Shown here one piece after another: positions 1 through 9,674 of a stretch of DNA of 11,804 nt (positions within the stretch are counted from its first letter, which is position 1; each line of letters starts with the position of its first letter). The position numbers and the translations under genes were made by a program. Location of the stretch: the NCBI GenBank assembly GCA_913040915.1, contig CAJWHW010000040.1, forward strand, positions 1 to 11,804, written 5' to 3'. This stretch comes from an uncultured Fidelibacterota bacterium (GTDB lineage: Bacteria > Fidelibacterota > Marinisomatia > Marinisomatales > UBA1611). Under the pieces are notes generated by a model, which did not search any database, had not been told where the DNA came from, and saw only the letters and a program-made list of their open reading frames with translations.

Positions 1-54
1 TAATCCCGATGAGATTGGATTTCACGTCCAAGGAAAACTTCTTCATTTTTTTTT
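1..54 (-). other. ftsH: A9 homopolymer plus out-of-frame continuation of ftsH ([17 protein letters not shown]...)
   Basis: Minus strand reads GGT AAAAAAAAA TGAAGAAGTTTTCCTTGGACGTGAAATCCAATCTCATCGGGATTA. With A8 it translates without a stop to the window edge and contains the FtsH EEVFLGR motif. Confidence 0.9.
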
Positions 55-1731
55 ACCGAAAGTCATTGGTCCGAGAAGATCACTCATACCCCATTCAGTT
101 ATCATTTTTCGGGCAATCTGAGTAGCCTGTTCAATATCATTTCCTGCGCCAGTTGTCATTTGATTGAAAATAAGCATCTCAGCGCTTCGACCTCCCATTA
201 GAATCGCTAATCTTCCTTCCACATAATTTCGAGTGTAACCATGTTTCTCATCCATGGGTAATTGCATTGTAACGCCAAGGGCCCTTCCTCGAGGTATAAT
301 AGTAATCTTATGGACTGGATCTGCACCTTTTGTTTTTATCGCAACAAGGGCATGACCTGCTTCATGATAAGCAGTTACTTCTTTCTCTTCATCTGATAAG
401 ATCATGCTTTTCCGTTGCACACCCATCATAACTTTATCTTTTGCTTCTTCAAAATCAGCCATATCAATTGACTTTTTTCTTTTTCTTGCTGCAAGAAGAG
501 CTGCTTCATTAACAATATTTGCAATATCTGCCCCAACCATTCCGGGAGTGCCTTTTGCTAAGGATTCAAGATTAACTTTACTGCGATTAATTACTACTTT
601 TTTAGTGTGAACTTTCAATATACCAAGACGGCCCCTATAATCTGGTATATCCACCACAATTTGTCGATCAAAACGTCCAGGACGAAGTAGCGCTGGATCC
701 AAAACATCAGGGCGGTTGGTTGCTGCGATAACAATCACATTTTGTGAATTATCAAAACCATCCATTTCAACTAAAAGCGCATTTAAAGTTTGTTCCCTTT
801 CATCATGTCCACCGCCAATTCCTGCGCCGCGCTGTCGGCCTACTGCATCCATTTCATCTATGAATATAATACAGGGAGAACTTTTTTTGGCTTGTTCAAA
901 AAGATCTCGAACACGGGAAGCGCCCACACCAACAAACATTTCTACAAAATCAGCGCCACTCAAACTATAAAATGGAACAGCAGCTTCTCCTGCAATAGCC
1001 CTAGCTAATAAAGTTTTTCCTGTACCAGGGGGGCCTACAAGCAAAGCACCCTTTGGGACTTTAGCACCAAGCTTTTGGAATCGTTTTGGATTTTTAAGAA
1101 AATCAATGACCTCTTTTAATTCTTCTTTTGCTTCTTCACATCCTGCTACATCTTTAAATGTCACACGTGGTTGATCAGAAGTCCATAGTGCTGCACGACT
1201 TTTCCCAAATTTGAAAATACCACCGACTCCTCCAGCACCACCCTGCATTCTGCGAATCATAAAAAACCAAAATCCAATCAATAGAATCCATGGTAACATA
1301 TTTAAAAGATAACTAGTCCAATCTATTGTTTTTTCTTTAAAGGTGTAGTCTAATCCTGCAGCATCCCATTCATCTCTATCTTCTCTTTCAATAAATGGTA
1401 GAGTCAATTTAAAATGGGTCACATCACTTAATGGACCGATAGCTGTTTCGATTGTCTTTGGAATTTTGAATTCACCATGAAAAACATTACCCATAATAGT
1501 AGCTTTTCCAATTTCACCATTCGCTAAATATTGTCGGTATTCAGTATATTCAATTTCTACTTCTTTTTTTCCGGATTCAGTCAATATTCCGGAAATGTAA
1601 ACTGCACCCAGAATAATCATTAACCATACAAGACTTGTCTTACCAGCACGCTTCCAGTCAAACTGATCTTGTGGCTGATCCGGGTTTGGCTTTTGTTGAT
1701 TCCCTTTTGGTGCATTTTTTTGATTTTGCAT
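43..1731 (-). CDS. ftsH: ATP-dependent zinc metalloprotease FtsH; apparent frameshift near the C-terminus, true CDS continues past position 1
   Basis: Two N-terminal TM segments, Walker A GPPGTGKT, pore loop FVGVG, Walker [30 protein letters not shown], Zn motif HEAGH, then GGRSAE and GAGND. The ORF stops at an A9 run (46-54). Removing one A gives [19 protein letters not shown], a typical FtsH continuation. Confidence 0.97.
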
Positions 1732-1740
1732 TTTTAAAAT

Positions 1741-1747
1741 TTCCTTT
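1741..1747 (-). promoter_or_regulatory. Shine-Dalgarno-like site (AAAGGAA) for ftsH, overlapping the hpt stop codon
   Basis: Minus strand TAAAGGAA-ATTTTAAAA-ATG, 9-nt spacer to the ATG at 1731. Confidence 0.55.
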
Positions 1748-2288
1748 ATGATTGAACTGACTCAACATCTAAATGATAAACGCCGTCCAAATGTCTTAAC
1801 TTTTGATCAAAATCCAACCCATATCCTACAACAAATTCAGGTGAAATTTCAAATCCAACAAAGTCTACAGGAAAGTCCATCACCGCGATATCAGGTTTTA
1901 TCAAGAATGTGGCAATTGAAACTGATTTAGGAGACGCACCCTGTATTCTTTCCCGAAGAAAGCAAATAGTATGTCCAGAGTCAATAATGTCTTCAACTAA
2001 AATTACATGTCTATTGGTAACATCAGCTGATATATCCTTAATTAATTGGATTGTTCCAGTTCTTTTGGTGCCAACGTAGCTTTTGACTTTTATAAAATCT
2101 ACTTCACAATCAATTGAAACAGCTCTTAATAGATCAGCCATAAACATAAAACTACCATTTAATACACCTATAAATATTGGGTCTTTTGCTGAAAATTTTC
2201 CAGAAATTTCCATTCCCATTTCTTTTACACGCTTCTGAATCTCTTCAGCTGAGATAACTAATGTTTTTTGTTGATCTATTACATTCAC
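1746..2288 (-). CDS. hpt: hypoxanthine(-guanine) phosphoribosyltransferase
   Basis: [17 protein letters not shown] loop, PRPP-binding [13 protein letters not shown] and C-terminal [11 protein letters not shown] start. Lies between tilS and ftsH as in the conserved cluster. Confidence 0.96.
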
Positions 2289-2290
2289 TT

Positions 2291-3679
2291 TTAAAGCAGA
2301 CTCATACTTAGATTGACAGTTACTTTTGTATCTTTTGTTAGTTTAACCCAATCAGCAATCCGTTTCCCGCAAACCCATATGATTTGACCATTAGCTGTAA
2401 CAACTGCCTGTGAGTTTTTAGAAAAACGATCTACCTTTTCATTAATGAGAAAATCACTGATCTTTTGATGACCTTTCATACCTAATGGCTGAAAAAAATC
2501 TCCTTCTTTTAAGTTACGTATTTCTAATTCCAGGTTTTTTAGAACAGACCAATCCATTTTCTCTTGATTTAATATTGAATCTGATCTTTCAGGATCCCCA
2601 AAATAAACTTCATATTTGTATTTATCAAATTCAACAGGCTGATTTGGAATAAGCTTCACTGTCCTAGATCTAGAGTTTATTTTCTCTTTTTCACCAATAA
2701 TAGATTTCCTATCCCTTAATAATGACCAACCATTTTTCAAAGATATTTGATTTCCAATTTTATCTTTTTGTAAAAAAGAATATAACATTTTTATTCTATG
2801 TTTTGACCATAGCTCATTTTCATTTTCTGATGTCAAAATTTGAATCAACCTTATTTTTACCATTTTTGGTAGGCTTTTGAAATCTTTTAATGAAATTTCG
2901 ATCCGTTTATCAGATTGTTGAACTTTTGGCAAGAGAGTTTTACAGATTAAATAATCCAGTCCTTCCTTCCAATCAGAGAAATGATTCGCAGACTCATGGA
3001 TTCCCATAATGATATTTTGAAATTCTGCTTCCCAAGGTTTTACAACCTTGTGACGTATAAAATTACGGGGTATTGAAATATCCATATTTGTAAAATCTTC
3101 TCTAAATGGAATACCAGCCTTTTTTACAAATTCAGTCAATTCTTTTTTTCTAAAACCCAATAAAGGACGAATTATATTATTTCGTTGTTTTGCAATACCT
3201 CGCAATCCTGCAATACCCGATTTTTTTGATAGATTCATCAGAATTGTCTCTGCTTGATCGTTTCCATGATGTGCGGTCATAATCCACCGACAATGTGATA
3301 TTTTGGCGGTATTTTTCAAAAATGAATAACGCTCTATTCTTGCCCATTGCTCTACACTTTCTCCTTTATTCATTGTTGATGGATCCAATTGTTTAGAATA
3401 AAAAGATAGTGAAAAATAGTCACAAATATTTGCAACAAATTTTTCATCCTTTTCAGAATTAGATCTTAACCCATGATTGACATGGGCAATTTTAAGGTCA
3501 AACAAATTAATTTCATTTATTATAAAAAAAAGTGCCATTGAATCCAGACCAGCAGAAACCGCTAAAAGAATCCCATCACCTTTATTTAAATCAGCAAAAT
3601 TATTCAATTCATTTTGAATACGAGAAAAGATCGGATCAGATTGTATTAAATTTTTTCTAAAATTTAGCAATTCATTCAT
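2291..3679 (-). CDS. tilS: tRNA(Ile)-lysidine synthetase
   Basis: PP-loop AVSAGLDS, HVNHGLR, ARxxRY, TAHHGNDQAET, IIRPLL, RNFIRH, and C-terminal GDFFQPLGMKGHQKISDFLINEKV ... IIWVCG. The ATG overlaps the upstream TAA (TAATG). Confidence 0.96.
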   Translation of the reverse strand: MNELLNFRKNLIQSDPIFSRIQNELNNFADLNKGDGILLAVSAGLDSMALFFIINEINLFDLKIAHVNHGLRSNSEKDEKFVANICDYFSLSFYSKQLDPSTMNKGESVEQWARIERYSFLKNTAKISHCRWIMTAHHGNDQAETILMNLSKKSGIAGLRGIAKQRNNIIRPLLGFRKKELTEFVKKAGIPFREDFTNMDISIPRNFIRHKVVKPWEAEFQNIIMGIHESANHFSDWKEGLDYLICKTLLPKVQQSDKRIEISLKDFKSLPKMVKIRLIQILTSENENELWSKHRIKMLYSFLQKDKIGNQISLKNGWSLLRDRKSIIGEKEKINSRSRTVKLIPNQPVEFDKYKYEVYFGDPERSDSILNQEKMDWSVLKNLELEIRNLKEGDFFQPLGMKGHQKISDFLINEKVDRFSKNSQAVVTANGQIIWVCGKRIADWVKLTKDTKVTVNLSMSLL

Positions 3680-4329
3680 TAATAATAATTTACCCGATTT
3701 AATAATGGAATCAAAAATGGGTTTTGAGCCATTTCCTGATTTAATGTTGTATTTGAACCATGACCAGGATGAAGTATATAATCAGTAGGGATTTCGCTCA
3801 TTAATTTGACCAAACTATTACATAATGTATCCCAATCACCCCCAGGAAGATCTGTCCTACCTACAGACCCTGCAAAAATTGTATCTCCTGTAAAGACGTG
3901 GTTTTTTATTATAATACATGTTCCTCCAGGCGTATGGCCAGGAGTTTCAAGCAATTTTATTTCAAAATCTCCCAGCTTTAATTCTTCATTTTCAAACCAA
4001 TGATCAACCTTGGGCGTTTTTTTTGGTATCATTCCAAAAAAGGCACAGTCACGTTCATATCCATCTAGTACTGATTTTTCATCGGAATGAAGGTAAAACG
4101 GAACTTGGTAATGGGATTTTATTTCTGACACACCACCAATATGGTCCAAATGAGCATGCGTATTTATTATCGCAATTGGATCAAGGTTGTATTGATCAAT
4201 TAAATGAATAATTTTTTCTGGGTCATCTCCAGGGTCAATTACTAGACAAGATAGTGAAAGGTCCTGTCTAACTAAATAGCTATTTTCTTGAAATGGGCCT
4301 GTCGTAACCCGCTCTATGGTAAGTTTCAA
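3679..4329 (-). CDS. MBL-fold metallo-hydrolase, glyoxalase II-like (YcbL/GloC family)
   Basis: GPFQENSY, VIDPG, THAHLDH (HxHxDH), TPGHTPG, FTGDTIF, GRTDLPGG, HPGHG. The TTG start overlaps the upstream TGA (TTGA). Confidence 0.9.
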   Translation of the reverse strand: MKLTIERVTTGPFQENSYLVRQDLSLSCLVIDPGDDPEKIIHLIDQYNLDPIAIINTHAHLDHIGGVSEIKSHYQVPFYLHSDEKSVLDGYERDCAFFGMIPKKTPKVDHWFENEELKLGDFEIKLLETPGHTPGGTCIIIKNHVFTGDTIFAGSVGRTDLPGGDWDTLCNSLVKLMSEIPTDYILHPGHGSNTTLNQEMAQNPFLIPLLNRVNYY

Positions 4330-5390
4330 ATGTTATTAAAAATTAAAGGAGATAAACACTGAATTTTATCTTCATATGAGTGAGGATAAAGCATCCATTC
4401 TGCGGCAGAAATGGAACTTAAGATTGAATTCCCATCTTGTGGTGTAAAACAAAATCCGGTAATCTCATGGTCATTTCTCACATTTAATGATTGCTCCACA
4501 ACAACAGTTTGGTTCATGATACGTCCATAATGTCCATGGTCACGACCAAAAGAAAAAACGGTACTGGTCATATCTTTACTAGTCATGGCAACATGGTCAT
4601 TTGCATGTAATCTATCCTTCACTGATACTAATGATGTCGGTTCCTTTACTTTTAATGTAAACCATAAAACGTGCATATACTGACTATTAACTTTCATAGC
4701 AGATGAAAATAAATTCAAATCTAATCCCAATGTAGCAAAGAGACCTGCTGCATCAGCTGCATGGTGTGAACCATATTTTTCATCACCATGACTTCCAACC
4801 TGAGGAGCAGGAATAAAACTTCCTAACTGACTTAAATCATTTGCCCGGCGTACGCAAACATACTTTCCTTCAATTAAATTTTCAGGGTCTTCGGATAAAG
4901 CCAATGTTTTCGTAATACAACTAATATTATGAGTATTGCATGAAACTATTTGAATAAACTTCTCTGATGCATTCAAAGCTGAATCATTAATACCACGAGC
5001 GTATTTTTTCCCAAAACCATCTTCACTACCTTGAGCTAAAAACCCTCTGACAGAATCAGAAAATTTTTGATAGTATTTAACTTTATTTTGATGGCTCACT
5101 CCCTTTGGAGTGCAGTCGATCACTACTGTGCAACGACTGATAGATTCTTCAGTCTCGAAATCAGCATCCATCCCTAATTTTTTAAATTCTTGTTCTCGTC
5201 CTTCATCTACTGATAAACGAGCCCCCCGTTTCAATAGATTAATAACTTTAGTTCTTTCACTCCGATGTGCGGAATTTTTATGGAAGGATACTTCATCAAT
5301 ACCCAATTGATCCCTGTAATCACATAATAAACCAATCAAAGGTTCACCAATAGTTCCTGTACCTATTACGTGAACAATCTTACGTTCCAT
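4326..5390 (-). CDS. divergent archaeal-type (class II) glyceraldehyde-3-phosphate dehydrogenase-like NAD(P)-dependent dehydrogenase
   Basis: Motifs are colinear with archaeal GAPDH: GTGTIG (cf. GYGTIG), VIDCTPKG (cf. VDATPGG), AQGSE (cf. FQGGE), IVSCNT with putative catalytic Cys151, VRRAND (cf. RRAAD), SHHAAD (cf. SHHGPD), MHV (His240, cf. catalytic His) and FGRD (cf. FARD). The class I SCTTNC motif is absent. Confidence 0.8.
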   Translation of the reverse strand: MERKIVHVIGTGTIGEPLIGLLCDYRDQLGIDEVSFHKNSAHRSERTKVINLLKRGARLSVDEGREQEFKKLGMDADFETEESISRCTVVIDCTPKGVSHQNKVKYYQKFSDSVRGFLAQGSEDGFGKKYARGINDSALNASEKFIQIVSCNTHNISCITKTLALSEDPENLIEGKYVCVRRANDLSQLGSFIPAPQVGSHGDEKYGSHHAADAAGLFATLGLDLNLFSSAMKVNSQYMHVLWFTLKVKEPTSLVSVKDRLHANDHVAMTSKDMTSTVFSFGRDHGHYGRIMNQTVVVEQSLNVRNDHEITGFCFTPQDGNSILSSISAAEWMLYPHSYEDKIQCLSPLIFNNI

Positions 5391-5400
5391 CTAAAAAAAG

Positions 5401-5407
5401 CTCCTTA
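5401..5407 (-). promoter_or_regulatory. Shine-Dalgarno site TAAGGAG for the GAPDH-like gene, overlapping the ccmD stop codon
   Basis: Minus strand TAAGGAG-CTTTTTTTAG-ATG, 10-nt spacer to the ATG at 5390. Confidence 0.7.
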
Positions 5408-5497
5408 ATTAAATTTTTTTAATTGAAGTATGTGGTAAAAAAACCAAACTACAATCATACCATAAACTAATGAAATAGCTGTAATTAAATAAATCAT
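5405..5497 (-). CDS. ccmD: heme exporter protein D-like small membrane protein (30 aa; not in the supplied ORF track)
   Basis: Manual translation: MIYLITAISLVYGMIVVWFFYHILQLKKFN*. The ATG is 2 nt after the ccmC stop. One hydrophobic helix with Tyr/Trp residues followed by a basic tail, in the canonical ccmD position. Confidence 0.75.
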   Translation of the reverse strand: MIYLITAISLVYGMIVVWFFYHILQLKKFN

Positions 5498-5499
5498 AT

Positions 5500-6165
5500 T
5501 CAGTTTATTAACTCTCTTTGTTTTAAAATTTCAATACGAAATCTGACCATCAAACTTGAAATAACAATAAAAGTCAAAAAAGAAAAAATTACTAAATAAG
5601 TTGGTAAGGGATTCGAACTATCAAAATATTGTCCTACTTGCGGATGCGATTGCATTTCAGGTAACCAAAATTTGACTGAAAAAAATATTAATGGGACATC
5701 CAAAAATGCAAGAATACCAACAACTGCTGCATATCTGGATACCTGTTCTGGATTTCCACCTAATTCACGTAACATGAAATATCCAAGGTATATTAGAAAT
5801 AAGATTAAACTTGTCGTCAGACGAGGCTCCCATGGCCAAAAATACCCCCAAGCGGGCTTAGCCCATATTGGCCCGGTGGTAAGGACAAAAAACATAAATA
5901 AAGTTCCTATTTCTGCAAATGCAAGTCCTCGGTGATCCCAAATTTTTTCTTTAATTAAAATGAACCGAATACCTGCTAACATTACACAGAAATATAGCAG
6001 AAAAGCTGTCCATGCAACCGGGACATGGATATAAAAAATATTACCATAAACCCCCTGCGCTAAGTTGGGTGGTTCTAAAGTGATGATAATATAAATATGA
6101 CATAATGCCAAAAATCCCGCAATTGCTGCATGAATCATGTTAATTCTTTTATTAAAGTATGACAC
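5500..6165 (-). CDS. ccmC: heme exporter/cytochrome c biogenesis protein CcmC
   Basis: IFYIHVPVAW (first heme-ligand His), tryptophan-rich GPIWAKPAWGYFWPWEPRLTT, second His in SVKFW...SHP, multiple TM helices. GTG start overlaps the ccmB TAG; an alternative ATG lies at 6138. Confidence 0.93.
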   Translation of the reverse strand: MSYFNKRINMIHAAIAGFLALCHIYIIITLEPPNLAQGVYGNIFYIHVPVAWTAFLLYFCVMLAGIRFILIKEKIWDHRGLAFAEIGTLFMFFVLTTGPIWAKPAWGYFWPWEPRLTTSLILFLIYLGYFMLRELGGNPEQVSRYAAVVGILAFLDVPLIFFSVKFWLPEMQSHPQVGQYFDSSNPLPTYLVIFSFLTFIVISSLMVRFRIEILKQRELIN

Positions 6166-6827: not shown

Positions 6828-7438
6828 TATTTTAATTCAATAATTCTATCTGTATGCAGTCTTAGCCATTCTCGATCATGGGAAACTATAAACATGGTCT
6901 TATTTTTATTTTTCCAATCGGTAAATAGTTCATCAAAGAGTGAAATTCCATTTTCATCTAATCCAGTTTTGGGCTCATCTAACAATAGGACACGTGGAGT
7001 AAGGGTAATCACTACAGCCAACTTTAGCCTTTGAAGCATACCTTGAGAATAAAATTTTACTAATTTCCCCCCATCGTTTTTCAACCCTACTTTGGTTAAT
7101 ACGTTATCAATATCACCCTTTATTATGCCATAAAGTTTAGAAAGAAAATCTATATTTTCTTCACCGGTTAAACTTGGATATAATCCAACAGAATGTCCCA
7201 AATAATAGACATCTTTCCTTGACTCAGTTTTTTCAGGATGAATAATCAGGTCATCAATTTTAATTTTTCCAGAATCAATAGACATAATACCACAAATCAT
7301 TTTTAATAGACTCGTTTTTCCTGAACCATTTGGACCAAATATTCCAACTGATTCTCCAGAATCAATTTTAAGGGAAAAATTTTTTAAAATAGGTGTTTTA
7401 TAAAATGATTTTGTCAAATTTTCAATCTGTATGTTCAT
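6827..7438 (-). CDS. ccmA: heme exporter ABC ATP-binding protein CcmA
   Basis: Walker A GPNGSGKT, CcmA-type YLGH, signature YSQGMLQRL, Walker B LLLDEP, VSHD switch. Translationally coupled to ccmB. Confidence 0.9.
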   Translation of the reverse strand: MNIQIENLTKSFYKTPILKNFSLKIDSGESVGIFGPNGSGKTSLLKMICGIMSIDSGKIKIDDLIIHPEKTESRKDVYYLGHSVGLYPSLTGEENIDFLSKLYGIIKGDIDNVLTKVGLKNDGGKLVKFYSQGMLQRLKLAVVITLTPRVLLLDEPKTGLDENGISLFDELFTDWKNKNKTMFIVSHDREWLRLHTDRIIELK

Positions 7439-7707
7439 ACTGATCTTTTTAATTCAGAAATAATTTCTGAAATATCTTTTTTCAATCTGTTTCGTCCAAA
7501 TTCATAATCCTTATCTGTAATATTGCCAATGTGATGATCCATTTCTAATTCTTTAATCTGTCGTAAAAAAACAATTTTTTTTCGCTCCAACTCTTCTCTA
7601 CTGACTAATGCAGGAATTTTTGATCTTCCTTCAAATAAGGGAAAAATAACATACCAAACCGATGTACCAAAAAGTAGAATCAGAGACAAAAGAAAAATTA
7701 AACTCAT
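7435..7707 (-). CDS. 90-aa membrane-anchored protein resembling the N-terminal domain of CcmI (no TPR region)
   Basis: Start reassigned to ATG 7707 (ATGA overlap with the ccmF stop) instead of 7785. A TM helix ending in PLF is followed by RQIKELEMDHHIGNITDKDYEFGRNRL, resembling the CcmI-N pattern RxxLxELxxDxxxGxIxxxxY. Confidence 0.65.
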   Translation of the reverse strand: MSLIFLLSLILLFGTSVWYVIFPLFEGRSKIPALVSREELERKKIVFLRQIKELEMDHHIGNITDKDYEFGRNRLKKDISEIISELKRSV

Positions 7708-9674
7708 ATAACCTTTTCCCTTGCAGGCCACAAACTTATAAGTGTCCCAATAACTAAAACATAACCTCCTAACCACACCCACCAAACCAATGGATTAATC
7801 ATGATTTTCAAATAAGCAATGCGTTGTTCCATATCCACCCCAGAAAAAATAGAATAAATATCTTTATTTACAGTTCCATAAATGTCTAATTCACTATGGG
7901 GTTGACGTTTATCAGGATTTGGATCCCGGTGAAAATATATTCGTTTCTCCGGGTAAAGAGTAGTAACCAATTTATTCTGAAAATCCCAAACGTTAAGCCC
8001 CGCTACCCAAGCCATATGATTAGGACGTTCTTCCGGTAAAATTGAAACCAACTCAAATATATAGCCATTGAATTCCTCAGTTTCACCCTGTTTTAAAGCA
8101 AATTCGGACTCTTTGTCAAAAGCGTGACCTGAAAATCCTACGAACATAAATACTATACCAATGTGAACGATATATCCACCATATCGGCTTCTGTTCTTTG
8201 AAATTAATTTCATTAAAGCAATAAGAAATGACTCATTAAATCTATTAATTCTAGATTGGATCCCGCGTTGAAATTCAATAATGATTGCAACAAGGACAAA
8301 ACCTATTAGAGGAAATGAAATTAATGTAGCATTTCGTACTCCAGCAAAAAAGCAACCTACAAATGTTAATAATGCCATAACAACTGGGATGCTGAAATTT
8401 CGAATGAAAACTTTTTTAGATGTTCTGCGCCAAACTAACATTGGGCCTACACCAGTTAAAAAGAGAAGAATTAGACCAATTGGAACATTTACTTGGTTAA
8501 AGAAAGGTGCGCCTACAGTGATTTTTTCTCCACGAATTGCTTCCGAAATTACCGGGAATATCGTTCCCCAGAACACAGCAAAACATATGACCACAAAAAT
8601 AAAATTATTGAATAAAAATCCACTTTCTCTAGACGTAAATGATTCAATTCGTTTATTAGTTTTTAGAATAGGCAATCGATCTACAATTAAATAAATACAG
8701 ACTAGCAGTAAGAGTGCAATAAATCCAAGAAATACAGGTCCTAAATTTGATACTGCAAAAGAATGGACGGAGGACATAACTCCGCTTCTCGTTAGGAACG
8801 TTCCAAAGATACACAATGTAAAAGTTAGTAAAATCAATATCATGTTCCAGATTTTGAGCATACCCTTTTTTTCTTGTATAATAATGGAATGTAAAAAAGC
8901 TGTACCAGTTAGCCATGGCATAAATGAAGCATTCTCTACAGGATCCCATGCCCAGTATCCACCCCAGCCTAGCTCTTGGTAAGCCCACCAACCGCCAAGT
9001 ATAATACCAATACTTTGGAATAACCATGCAATCAATGTCCAGCGGCGAATGGACCTGATCCATACCGAACCTGTATCTTTTGTAATGAGAGCTGCAATAG
9101 CAAAAGCAAATGGAATTGTAAATCCAACGTAACCCAAATATAAAGTTGGAGGATGTATAGCCATGGTAAGATTTTGGAGAAGCGGATTAAGTCCATTTCC
9201 ATTTACAACTACAAAATCTGCTTCTGTTGGTGCAAATGGATTCTCAACAAAGTTTACTAAAAATAGGAAGAATATCTGGATAGTCACTATCACAATGATG
9301 ACCCACGGCATCAATTTTGTATATGCATTTTTGTATTGAAATAAAATAATCAAAGCATATGTAGATAACACGAAAAGCCAAAATAAAAGCGATCCTGATT
9401 GGCCCGCCCATAGAGCTGTAAATTTATAAAAGGTCGGCGTTTCTAAACTGGTATAATGCGCTACATACTTTATATCAAAATTGCTAACTAATAATTCATT
9501 TAATAATAGGAAAGTTGCAAGTATTGAAAATACTGAAACCAATACACTTGCCCGCCAACCTGCTAAATAATAACGGTAATCCTGTTGCTTTAAAAAGATT
9601 GAGAAAAGAAATATAGTAAGTGCTGCAATACCCAAGCCTAGGCTGAGAGTCACACTACCTAAGATTGGGATCAT
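7704..9674 (-). CDS. ccmF: cytochrome c synthetase (heme lyase) CcmF
   Basis: WAGQSGSLLFW, GLNPLLQ, IHPPTLYLGY, WWD motif ELGWGGYWAWDPVENAS, FLHS, SVHSFA, YIVHIG, C-terminal NPLVWWVWLGG. Confidence 0.97.
   Translation of the reverse strand: MIPILGSVTLSLGLGIAALTIFLFSIFLKQQDYRYYLAGWRASVLVSVFSILATFLLLNELLVSNFDIKYVAHYTSLETPTFYKFTALWAGQSGSLLFWLFVLSTYALIILFQYKNAYTKLMPWVIIVIVTIQIFFLFLVNFVENPFAPTEADFVVVNGNGLNPLLQNLTMAIHPPTLYLGYVGFTIPFAFAIAALITKDTGSVWIRSIRRWTLIAWLFQSIGIILGGWWAYQELGWGGYWAWDPVENASFMPWLTGTAFLHSIIIQEKKGMLKIWNMILILLTFTLCIFGTFLTRSGVMSSVHSFAVSNLGPVFLGFIALLLLVCIYLIVDRLPILKTNKRIESFTSRESGFLFNNFIFVVICFAVFWGTIFPVISEAIRGEKITVGAPFFNQVNVPIGLILLFLTGVGPMLVWRRTSKKVFIRNFSIPVVMALLTFVGCFFAGVRNATLISFPLIGFVLVAIIIEFQRGIQSRINRFNESFLIALMKLISKNRSRYGGYIVHIGIVFMFVGFSGHAFDKESEFALKQGETEEFNGYIFELVSILPEERPNHMAWVAGLNVWDFQNKLVTTLYPEKRIYFHRDPNPDKRQPHSELDIYGTVNKDIYSIFSGVDMEQRIAYLKIMINPLVWWVWLGGYVLVIGTLISLWPAREKVI

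Follow-up and report, generated by a model that had tools for sequence, protein, structure and literature searches.

A divergent relative of archaeal class II glyceraldehyde-3-phosphate dehydrogenase in a marine bacterial gene row, and the sister family to which it belongs

Among the best-studied enzymes is glyceraldehyde-3-phosphate dehydrogenase (GAPDH). The gene considered here lies in an 11,804-bp stretch of DNA from an uncultured Fidelibacterota bacterium (hereafter the window), which is an entire contig (C40) of a 1.86-Mb genome assembled in 71 contigs, 85% complete and with 2.3% contamination. It encodes a 354-aa GAPDH-like protein whose family, named G2L in this report, has no curated Pfam or NCBIfam model of its own. 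G2L is a sister family of the archaeal class II GAPDHs, not a canonical member of that class. The window protein is probably (at a probability of roughly 0.7) a working phosphorylating GAPDH of this uncharacterised family, serving in the source organism as a second isoenzyme beside a class I enzyme. Homology, fold, residue conservation and genomic distribution form the basis of this reading, and from them activity, cofactor and direction are inferred. The gene and its ribosome-binding site are as follows.

4326..5390, minus strand: G2L gene, 354 aa, GAPDH-like; ATG at 5390, stop codon ending at 4326; identified on open reading frame (ORF), profile, fold and residue evidence
5401..5406, minus strand: Shine-Dalgarno sequence AAGGAG, read from the sequence, 10 nt upstream of the G2L ATG

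An earlier, sequence-only reading of this DNA had described a 354-aa ORF at 4326-5390 with a strong Shine-Dalgarno sequence and a series of class II motifs. The ORF call and translation confirm the frame and add the strand, which had been missing; the plus strand of the same interval is riddled with stops. The AAGGAG element stands where a strong Shine-Dalgarno sequence was claimed. All eight quoted motifs are likewise present in the translation, namely GTGTIG (residues 10-15), DCTPKG (92-97), QGSE (120-123), SCNT (150-153), RRAND (181-185), SHHAAD (208-213), MHV (239-241) and FGRD (281-284).

The likeness of the protein to class II GAPDH is far beyond chance, and its description as a divergent homologue of the archaeal-type enzyme stands. 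The best NCBIfam models for the target are the two class II GAPDH equivalogs, NF003251 (84.8 bits, E 5.8e-24) and TIGR01546 (60.4 bits), with cut-offs of 185 and 232.9 bits, respectively, that are not reached. Pfam gave a single sub-threshold match, to the semialdehyde-dehydrogenase NAD domain PF01118 (17.5 bits against a cut-off of 26), and the same scan found no PF02774 (Semialdhyde_dhC) match. Searches with class I models returned neither Gp_dh_N nor Gp_dh_C at E <= 0.01, and no match to TIGR01534. The only solved relatives found by a phmmer search of the PDB are four archaeal GAPDHs, 1cf2 (7.5e-11), 1b7g, 2yyy and 2czc, and identity to canonical class II enzymes is 20-25%. In the ESM Atlas, which provides name-level leads only, the nearest clusters are unnamed or labelled 'putative GAPDH', followed by type II GAPDH clusters.

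This distance from canonical class II is a property of the whole family. At E <= 1e-3, an exhaustive HMMER search of 1.84 billion cluster representatives gave 740 clusters, of which 481 reached <= 1e-10 and 133 reached <= 1e-30, the last being 50%-identity clusters. In alignment A1, which comprises the query and 66 full-length representatives that are 27-53% identical, 65 of the 67 sequences match NF003251, the best at E 4.9e-38 (an estimated ~130 bits, under the cut-off of 185). Archaeal G2L proteins score 76-124 bits on this model and canonical class II enzymes 263-537. Since both the curated cut-offs and membership of the canonical clade (see below) fail, G2L is filed as a sister family and not as a member of class II.

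The predicted fold agrees with the profile ranking. An AlphaFold2 model built from A1 (pLDDT 97.6, pTM 0.94) was used in a structural search, in which the class II enzyme 2czc_A ranked first (Z 38.7, root-mean-square deviation 2.0 over 323 residues). It was followed by the class I structures 8jb1 (Z 27.2) and 7bex (26.4), Asd 2hjs (26.1), malonyl-CoA reductase 4dpk (24.9) and ArgC 3dr3 (23.1), with Asd and ArgC spanning 22-26. In Foldseek, the top six rows are the class II structures 2czc, 1cf2, 2yyy and 1b7g (TMq 0.79-0.82, ~20% identity), and class I and erythrose-4-phosphate dehydrogenase (E4PDH) structures come next (TMq 0.56-0.67). Given this fold and profile ranking, Asd, ArgC and acylating aldehyde dehydrogenase are not better matches, and these identities, together with malonyl-CoA reductase, were rejected. 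Profile comparison and structure prediction had both been proposed as checks on the sequence-only reading; they leave class II as the nearest family, with no other fitting better.

The active site also links the protein to class II chemistry. In a 2025 review (PMC12041015), the Methanothermus fervidus enzyme 1CF2 is described with a catalytic Ser139-Cys140-Asn141-Thr142 segment and His219 as base (citing Charron et al. 2000), a phosphate site formed by Ser139, Asn141, Arg167, His193 and His194, and Arg167 and Arg168 holding the phosphate of glyceraldehyde 3-phosphate (GAP); in NADP+-dependent enzymes, a Lys takes the place that Asn32 has in E. coli GapA. In the HMMER alignment to 1cf2, these positions correspond to S150-C151-N152-T153, H240, R181-R182, H209-H210 and K38 (equivalent to K33). 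When 70 bacterial and archaeal G2L sequences were aligned with seven canonical class II enzymes, S150-C151-N152-T153, H240, R181, R182, H209 and K38 were kept in 70/70 and 7/7, respectively. H210 is kept in 66/70 G2L sequences, with Gln in the other four, and in 7/7 canonical enzymes. The presence of K38 at the NADP-linked position suggests that G2L may accept NADP(H).

By analogy with class II, Cys151, activated by His240, would attack the aldehyde of GAP, and hydride would be transferred to NAD(P)+. The resulting thioester would be cleaved by phosphate held by Ser150, Asn152, Arg181, His209 and His210, while the substrate phosphate would rest on Arg181 and Arg182. The product would be 1,3-bisphosphoglycerate for phosphoglycerate kinase (PGK), or the reaction could run in reverse in gluconeogenesis. 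In the source genome, G2L beside class I would probably be anabolic or a second isoenzyme, and in streamlined relatives it would act as the sole GAPDH.

Phylogeny with archaeal GAPDHs, another of the proposed checks, places the target outside canonical class II, in a sister clade. Two quick maximum-likelihood trees were built (LG+C20 PMSF, SH-aLRT support only) and rooted on the class I proteins of the source genome. The 68-row tree unites the 15 canonical class II sequences, which were drawn from samples of two archaeal phyla, in a single clade (support 100) that contains no G2L row and is set off by a branch of ~4.4 changes per site. The 24 bacterial rows all cluster together with two unnamed representatives (support 87), nested in a larger group (support 96) that also contains 11 archaeal G2L rows. 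Eight more archaeal G2L rows and several deep unnamed lineages lie in the basal polytomy. The 102-row tree agrees, with a support of 96 for the bacterial group. The window protein itself groups with Marinimicrobia in a four-row group with a support of 100. This topology fits a scenario in which bacterial G2L branched off inside the diversity of archaeal G2L and then dispersed through bacteria; such an origin is tentative because a very long branch carries the root and only quick trees were made.

An alternative suggestion of the sequence-only reading, that an inter-domain transfer had replaced gapA, fails for the source organism, whose genome encodes a bona fide class I GAPDH. Four class I Gp_dh_C matches occur in two tandem pairs, at C8:62302-63779 and C2:76966-78443 (loci L001-L004). 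One gene of each pair carries the canonical SNASCTTNC motif, and the C8 copy (333 aa) passes TIGR01534 with 432.9 bits against a cut-off of 367.2. In the partner gene of each pair the motif is ..SSTT.., in which Ser stands at the position of the catalytic Cys, and the score (321.6 bits) misses the same cut-off. The genome also holds PGK and one Semialdhyde_dhC gene, the latter on contig C2. The C8 and C2 class I copies are 82% and 67% identical; most relatives have two class I hits, not four, and the second pair may therefore reflect a duplication or a mix-up in binning. Geothrix also carries a tandem class I pair (G258:C1:408057-409541).

The Ser-bearing class I paralogues demonstrate that GAPDH-like proteins lacking the nucleophile exist in this genome, which is the observation that favours a catalytically idle or moonlighting G2L with a structural or regulatory role. 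Such a role is very improbable, as the catalytic and binding residues are kept in all 70 G2L sequences (66 for H210) and the protein is the only GAPDH candidate in two lineages.

These lineages emerge from the co-occurrence of G2L with other GAPDHs. Across 151 genomes of the phylum, G2L and class I are found together in 80, G2L only in 11, class I only in 54 and neither in six, the last being 72-90% complete. Seven of the 11 G2L-only genomes make up the whole sampled part of one family (f3, genus g5) from the window's own order. Members of this family are streamlined (0.8-1.1 Mb, 95-99% complete), with G2L in 7/7 and class I in 0/7, and the five tested all contain PGK and triosephosphate isomerase (TIM), with the two genes adjacent. 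A similar pattern is seen in an unrelated bacterial order (that of G259, a record labelled Gammaproteobacteria), where G2L occurs in 13 of 14 genomes, in up to three copies, and class I in two; G2L is present without class I in 12 and together with it in one, and the remaining genome has only class I. Five genomes of this order with megabase C1 contigs all contain PGK (5/5) and none contains canonical class II (0/5). PGK requires an accompanying phosphorylating GAPDH, and G2L is therefore the only visible candidate in both lineages (GAPN and GAPOR were not searched for). Family f3 and most genomes of the G259 order seem to have no GAPDH other than G2L. The PGK of the G259 order (L172-L176, G267-G271) is itself divergent, reaching only 223-236 bits on PF00162 where the window's genome reaches 461 bits and family f3 418-448 bits, and it accompanies G2L as sole GAPDH.

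Archaeal genomes provide a second line of support. Five archaeal G2L hosts have no canonical class II above cut-off, and class I is present in four of them. In a 101-genome Thermoplasmatota sample (the phylum of host G151), canonical class II was found in 60 genomes (403-516 bits), a G2L-level match only in 27 (86-124 bits), both in one (G207) and neither in 14. Twelve of the 28 low-scoring matches were fetched and all 12 are G2L, 40-57% identical to the window protein; the canonical class II enzymes of this sample are 20-25% identical to it. A further archaeal phylum, that of G154, shows canonical class II in 52/81 sampled genomes and G2L in G154 alone. Within Thermoplasmatota, G2L and canonical class II are almost mutually exclusive and G2L stands in the place of class II, with the limit that here, as in the two bacterial lineages, the counts come from related genomes, and so are not independent events, and that absence calls rest on metagenome-assembled genomes (MAGs), which make up most of them. 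One MAG labelled 'Halobacteriales' (L094/G155) is placed in one phylum sample with the Thermoplasmatota host G151, and its G2L pairs with that of G203 (support 100), indicating that the label may be wrong; profile searches of G155 found neither class I nor canonical class II.

G2L is widespread in the window's phylum and beyond it. An A1 profile search of the 151 phylum genomes detected it as a core gene in 91 (65 of the 95 high-quality genomes, 45 of the 61 genera), nearly always as a single copy and in every family of the window's class; in the same search it was not found in families f19 (0/33) and f23 (0/8). Outside this sample, species-representative genomes were scanned with a degenerate DNA pattern for FTPQDGN, which gave at least 120 loci, and at least 111 of these hold a true G2L homologue among the matches listed. 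Bacterial hosts labelled among the matches listed include Marinimicrobia, Acidobacteriota (Thermoanaerobaculia, Holophagaceae and the cultured Geothrix fuzhouensis SG12, locus L073), Acidimicrobiia, Planctomycetota, Gammaproteobacteria-labelled MAGs, Syntrophaceae/Desulfomonilaceae, Binatia, Eisenbacteria, Krumholzibacteriia, Oligoflexia, Fibrobacteraceae and two lineages of the candidate phyla radiation. Archaeal labels among them are Thermoplasmatota/Thermoplasmatales, Euryarchaeota, Bathyarchaeia and Halobacteriales, with 49-57% identity to the window protein. The suggestion of a poorly characterised bacterial sister clade is thus half right: G2L is a sister clade, and the Thermoplasmatota members at 40-57% identity mean that it is not purely bacterial.

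Gene order also speaks to whether the bacterial setting is genuine. The arrangement ccmB-ccmC-G2L-(MBL)-tilS, where MBL is a metallo-beta-lactamase-fold gene, recurs across the phylum in 12 loci of diverged members (56-74% identity), with ccmC upstream in 9/12, tilS downstream in 10/12 and the MBL gene between in 7/12, as judged from flanks of 1.5 kb only. A recent archaeal insert, or a chimeric or mis-binned contig, could be imagined from the 49-57% identity of archaeal G2L to the window protein and from the source itself, a short 11.8-kb contig of an incomplete and slightly contaminated MAG. This explanation is scarcely credible and is already contradicted by the shared gene order in 12 other phylum genomes. 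Moreover, the contig has a guanine-cytosine content of 0.349, which matches the remaining contigs of the genome, G2L is present in 91/151 phylum genomes, the nearest neighbours in the tree are Marinimicrobia and all neighbouring genes are of bacterial type. The sequence-only reading had itself named an archaeal or chimeric contig as the finding that would undo it, and the phylum-wide synteny, composition and distribution show no sign of one.

Several observations weigh against a G2L that functions as a GAPDH equivalent to class II. The target falls short of both class II equivalog cut-offs and no G2L row sits within the canonical clade, and equal substrate specificity is therefore not guaranteed. 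Some residues are invariant in G2L and differ from canonical class II, including Y107, H154 (Thr in canonical enzymes), H201, R290 and the loop FTPQDGN (315-321), as well as P17, F36, A119, S122, G125-F126-G127, N135 and G207. With class I already present, the GAPDH reaction itself does not require G2L in the source genome, and the near-exclusion patterns carry the limits on independence and absence calls given above. The neighbour survey (ORF clustering around 67 full-length loci and a Pfam scan of 103 neighbours at 23 loci outside the phylum) revealed no conserved glycolytic or recurrent pathway partner outside the phylum. A literature search, with subscription-only papers outside its scope, found no paper describing G2L and no enzyme assay for the family. 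Lastly, in one genome of the window's order (G055), the G2L gene (L192, G055:C14:143960-145021) contains three in-frame TGA codons and apparent frame shifts. TGA recoding was rejected since frame shifts are present too, which point to a pseudogene or to assembly errors. Around this gene, ccmA/B/C, tilS, hpt and ftsH align intact, and G055 has two class I hits; a broken G2L here indicates that a genome with class I can do without the gene.

Some of these points are what would be expected if G2L applied class II chemistry to a different phosphorylated aldehyde or acyl-phosphate (erythrose 4-phosphate or some other sugar-phosphate aldehyde, for instance), or were specialised to a side reaction where Marinimicrobia keep class I, in the manner of Epd. 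The private invariants H154, H201, R290, Y107 and FTPQDGN, the coexistence of class I in 80 of the 91 G2L-bearing phylum genomes, the sub-threshold scores on class II equivalog models and the position of E4PDH structures directly after class II in Foldseek are all in keeping with this. Yet neither the phosphate sites nor the catalytic pair have changed, no pathway-specific neighbour recurs, and G2L substitutes for canonical class II in Thermoplasmatota. In family f3 and the G259 order, nothing else feeds or drains PGK, within searches that did not cover GAPN and GAPOR. A different substrate is therefore regarded as unlikely, though less so than an idle protein or a contig artefact, and a phosphorylating GAPDH remains the preferred interpretation.

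Individual gene contexts offer hints in the same direction. An Acidimicrobiia locus (L021:5902-9876) has malate synthase, isocitrate lyase and G2L on a single strand, and in L039:5902-8503, which belongs to the Thermoplasmatota genome that also has canonical class II (G207), TIM is located ~0.9 kb from a divergent G2L. An MBL-fold gene neighbours G2L in 14 loci of the neighbour clustering, including the archaeal L052 and L062, where an MBL-fold hydrolase of 210-220 aa is divergent from G2L (L052:1889-2545 and L062:7080-7727), an association that crosses domains. The L021, L039 and MBL-gene contexts are isolated hints in keeping with central carbon metabolism. At the G268 locus, an enolase-superfamily gene and ftsH are found beside G2L.

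Comparison with known systems helps to place the family. With archaeal class II GAPDH (EC 1.2.1.59; NF003251/TIGR01546; 1CF2, 1B7G, 2CZC, 2YYY), G2L shares the fold (Z 38.7, TMq ~0.82), the Cys in S-C-N-T, the His base, the Arg-Arg and His-His phosphate sites and the NADP-linked Lys, and it appears to fill the genomic niche of class II in Thermoplasmatota. It differs in its 20-25% identity, scores under half of the curated cut-offs, a position outside the canonical clade, H154 for Thr, PQDGN for HQE.., R290, Y107 and H201, and its mostly bacterial hosts. Class I GAPDH (GapA/GapB; TIGR01534, PF00044/PF02800) and Epd belong to the same superfamily, have the same two-domain architecture and, in the case of class I, presumably catalyse the same reaction; unlike them, G2L has no Pfam Gp_dh match and its fold scores Z 26-27 against class I compared with 38.7 against class II. 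The catalytic His of class I is also at a different position than in class II (PMC12041015). Asd, ArgC and archaeal malonyl-CoA reductase share the superfamily, Cys-His chemistry on acyl-phosphates and a weak PF01118 N-domain match, whereas the PF01118 score of 17.5 bits is below 26, a Semialdhyde_dhC match is missing and the fold scores are Z 22-26.

A bolder proposal is that G2L is a third class of phosphorylating GAPDH, bidirectional, dual-cofactor or broader in substrate range, with properties shaped by H154, H201, R290 and FTPQDGN. It would have arisen among Thermoplasmatota-like archaea, crossed once into Bacteria, dispersed over more than ten phyla and supplanted class I in streamlined marine Marinimicrobia and another bacterial order. 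This proposal is tentative and, taken as a whole, probably goes too far. A review that traces the evolution of glycolysis from cultured genomes recognises two GAPDH classes, an anabolic archaeal and a bidirectional bacterial one (PMC12525153), and the class I/class II split serves reviews as a marker of the bacterial-archaeal divide; G2L adds a third coherent lineage. A GapDH_II subfamily 'in bacteria and archaea' is mentioned in PMC12041015, and the G2L clade is not described in the part of that source that was available. If the third-class proposal were true, the textbook division into 'archaeal anabolic' and 'bacterial bidirectional' GAPDH would be blurred. A metabolic reconstruction that depends on curated models would record no GAPDH in family f3 Marinimicrobia or the G259 order, and the cultured carrier G. 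fuzhouensis SG12 makes the biochemistry of G2L directly testable.

Around G2L, the window is a bacterial housekeeping row whose other features are listed below.

43..1731, minus strand: ftsH (AAA, Peptidase_M41 and FtsH_ext); the end of the peptidase domain seems to lie outside the listed ORF
1746..2288, minus strand: hpt (TIGR01203, 175.7 bits against a cut-off of 150)
2291..3679, minus strand: tilS, downstream of G2L (PF01171, 7e-51; TIGR02432, 179.7 bits against a cut-off of 93.6)
3679..4329, minus strand: MBL-fold hydrolase, glyoxalase-II-like (PF00753, 1.3e-27; TIGR03413 GloB, 89.3 bits, missing the cut-off of 200.8)
5405..5497, minus strand: 30-aa hydrophobic ORF between ccmC and G2L, from the ORF list, possibly ccmD
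5500..6165, minus strand: ccmC, the upstream neighbour (PF01578; TIGR01191, 135.4 bits)
7435..7785, minus strand: 116-aa ORF between ccmF and ccmA, overlapping the listed ccmF end, with no above-threshold family match

The twelve large ORFs share one strand. The gene order is methylmalonyl-CoA mutase, ccmE, ccmF, the 116-aa ORF, ccmA, ccmB, ccmC and the 30-aa ORF, then G2L, followed by the MBL-fold hydrolase, tilS, hpt and ftsH. The bacterial neighbours previously named from the sequence (tilS, hpt and ftsH) are supported by Pfam and NCBIfam matches and share the strand of G2L. The start of the MBL-fold gene overlaps the G2L stop by 4 nt, and the stop codon of the 30-aa ORF overlaps the G2L Shine-Dalgarno sequence. 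That ORF is possibly ccmD, judging from its position and make-up.

Near-identical and 76-90% identical proteins are plentiful in marine metagenomes. As the sequence-only reading had anticipated, NCBI names the matches 'hypothetical protein [Candidatus Marinimicrobia / Fidelibacterota bacterium]', and JGI-named matches read 'glyceraldehyde-3-phosphate dehydrogenase (NAD(P))'. Contigs from four marine metatranscriptome libraries contain pieces of 151-181 nt with 0-1 differences (99-100% identity) within the G2L gene, and one RNA-library contig, at 4279-4429, crosses the junction between G2L and the MBL gene. These contigs cover parts of the window, the uncovered parts being uninformative, and they lend weak support to expression of G2L because DNA carry-over is possible.

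The 116-aa ORF between ccmF and ccmA has a counterpart in G055 (33% identity over 72 aa), and could be an accessory protein of the ccm system whose true start is a later one.

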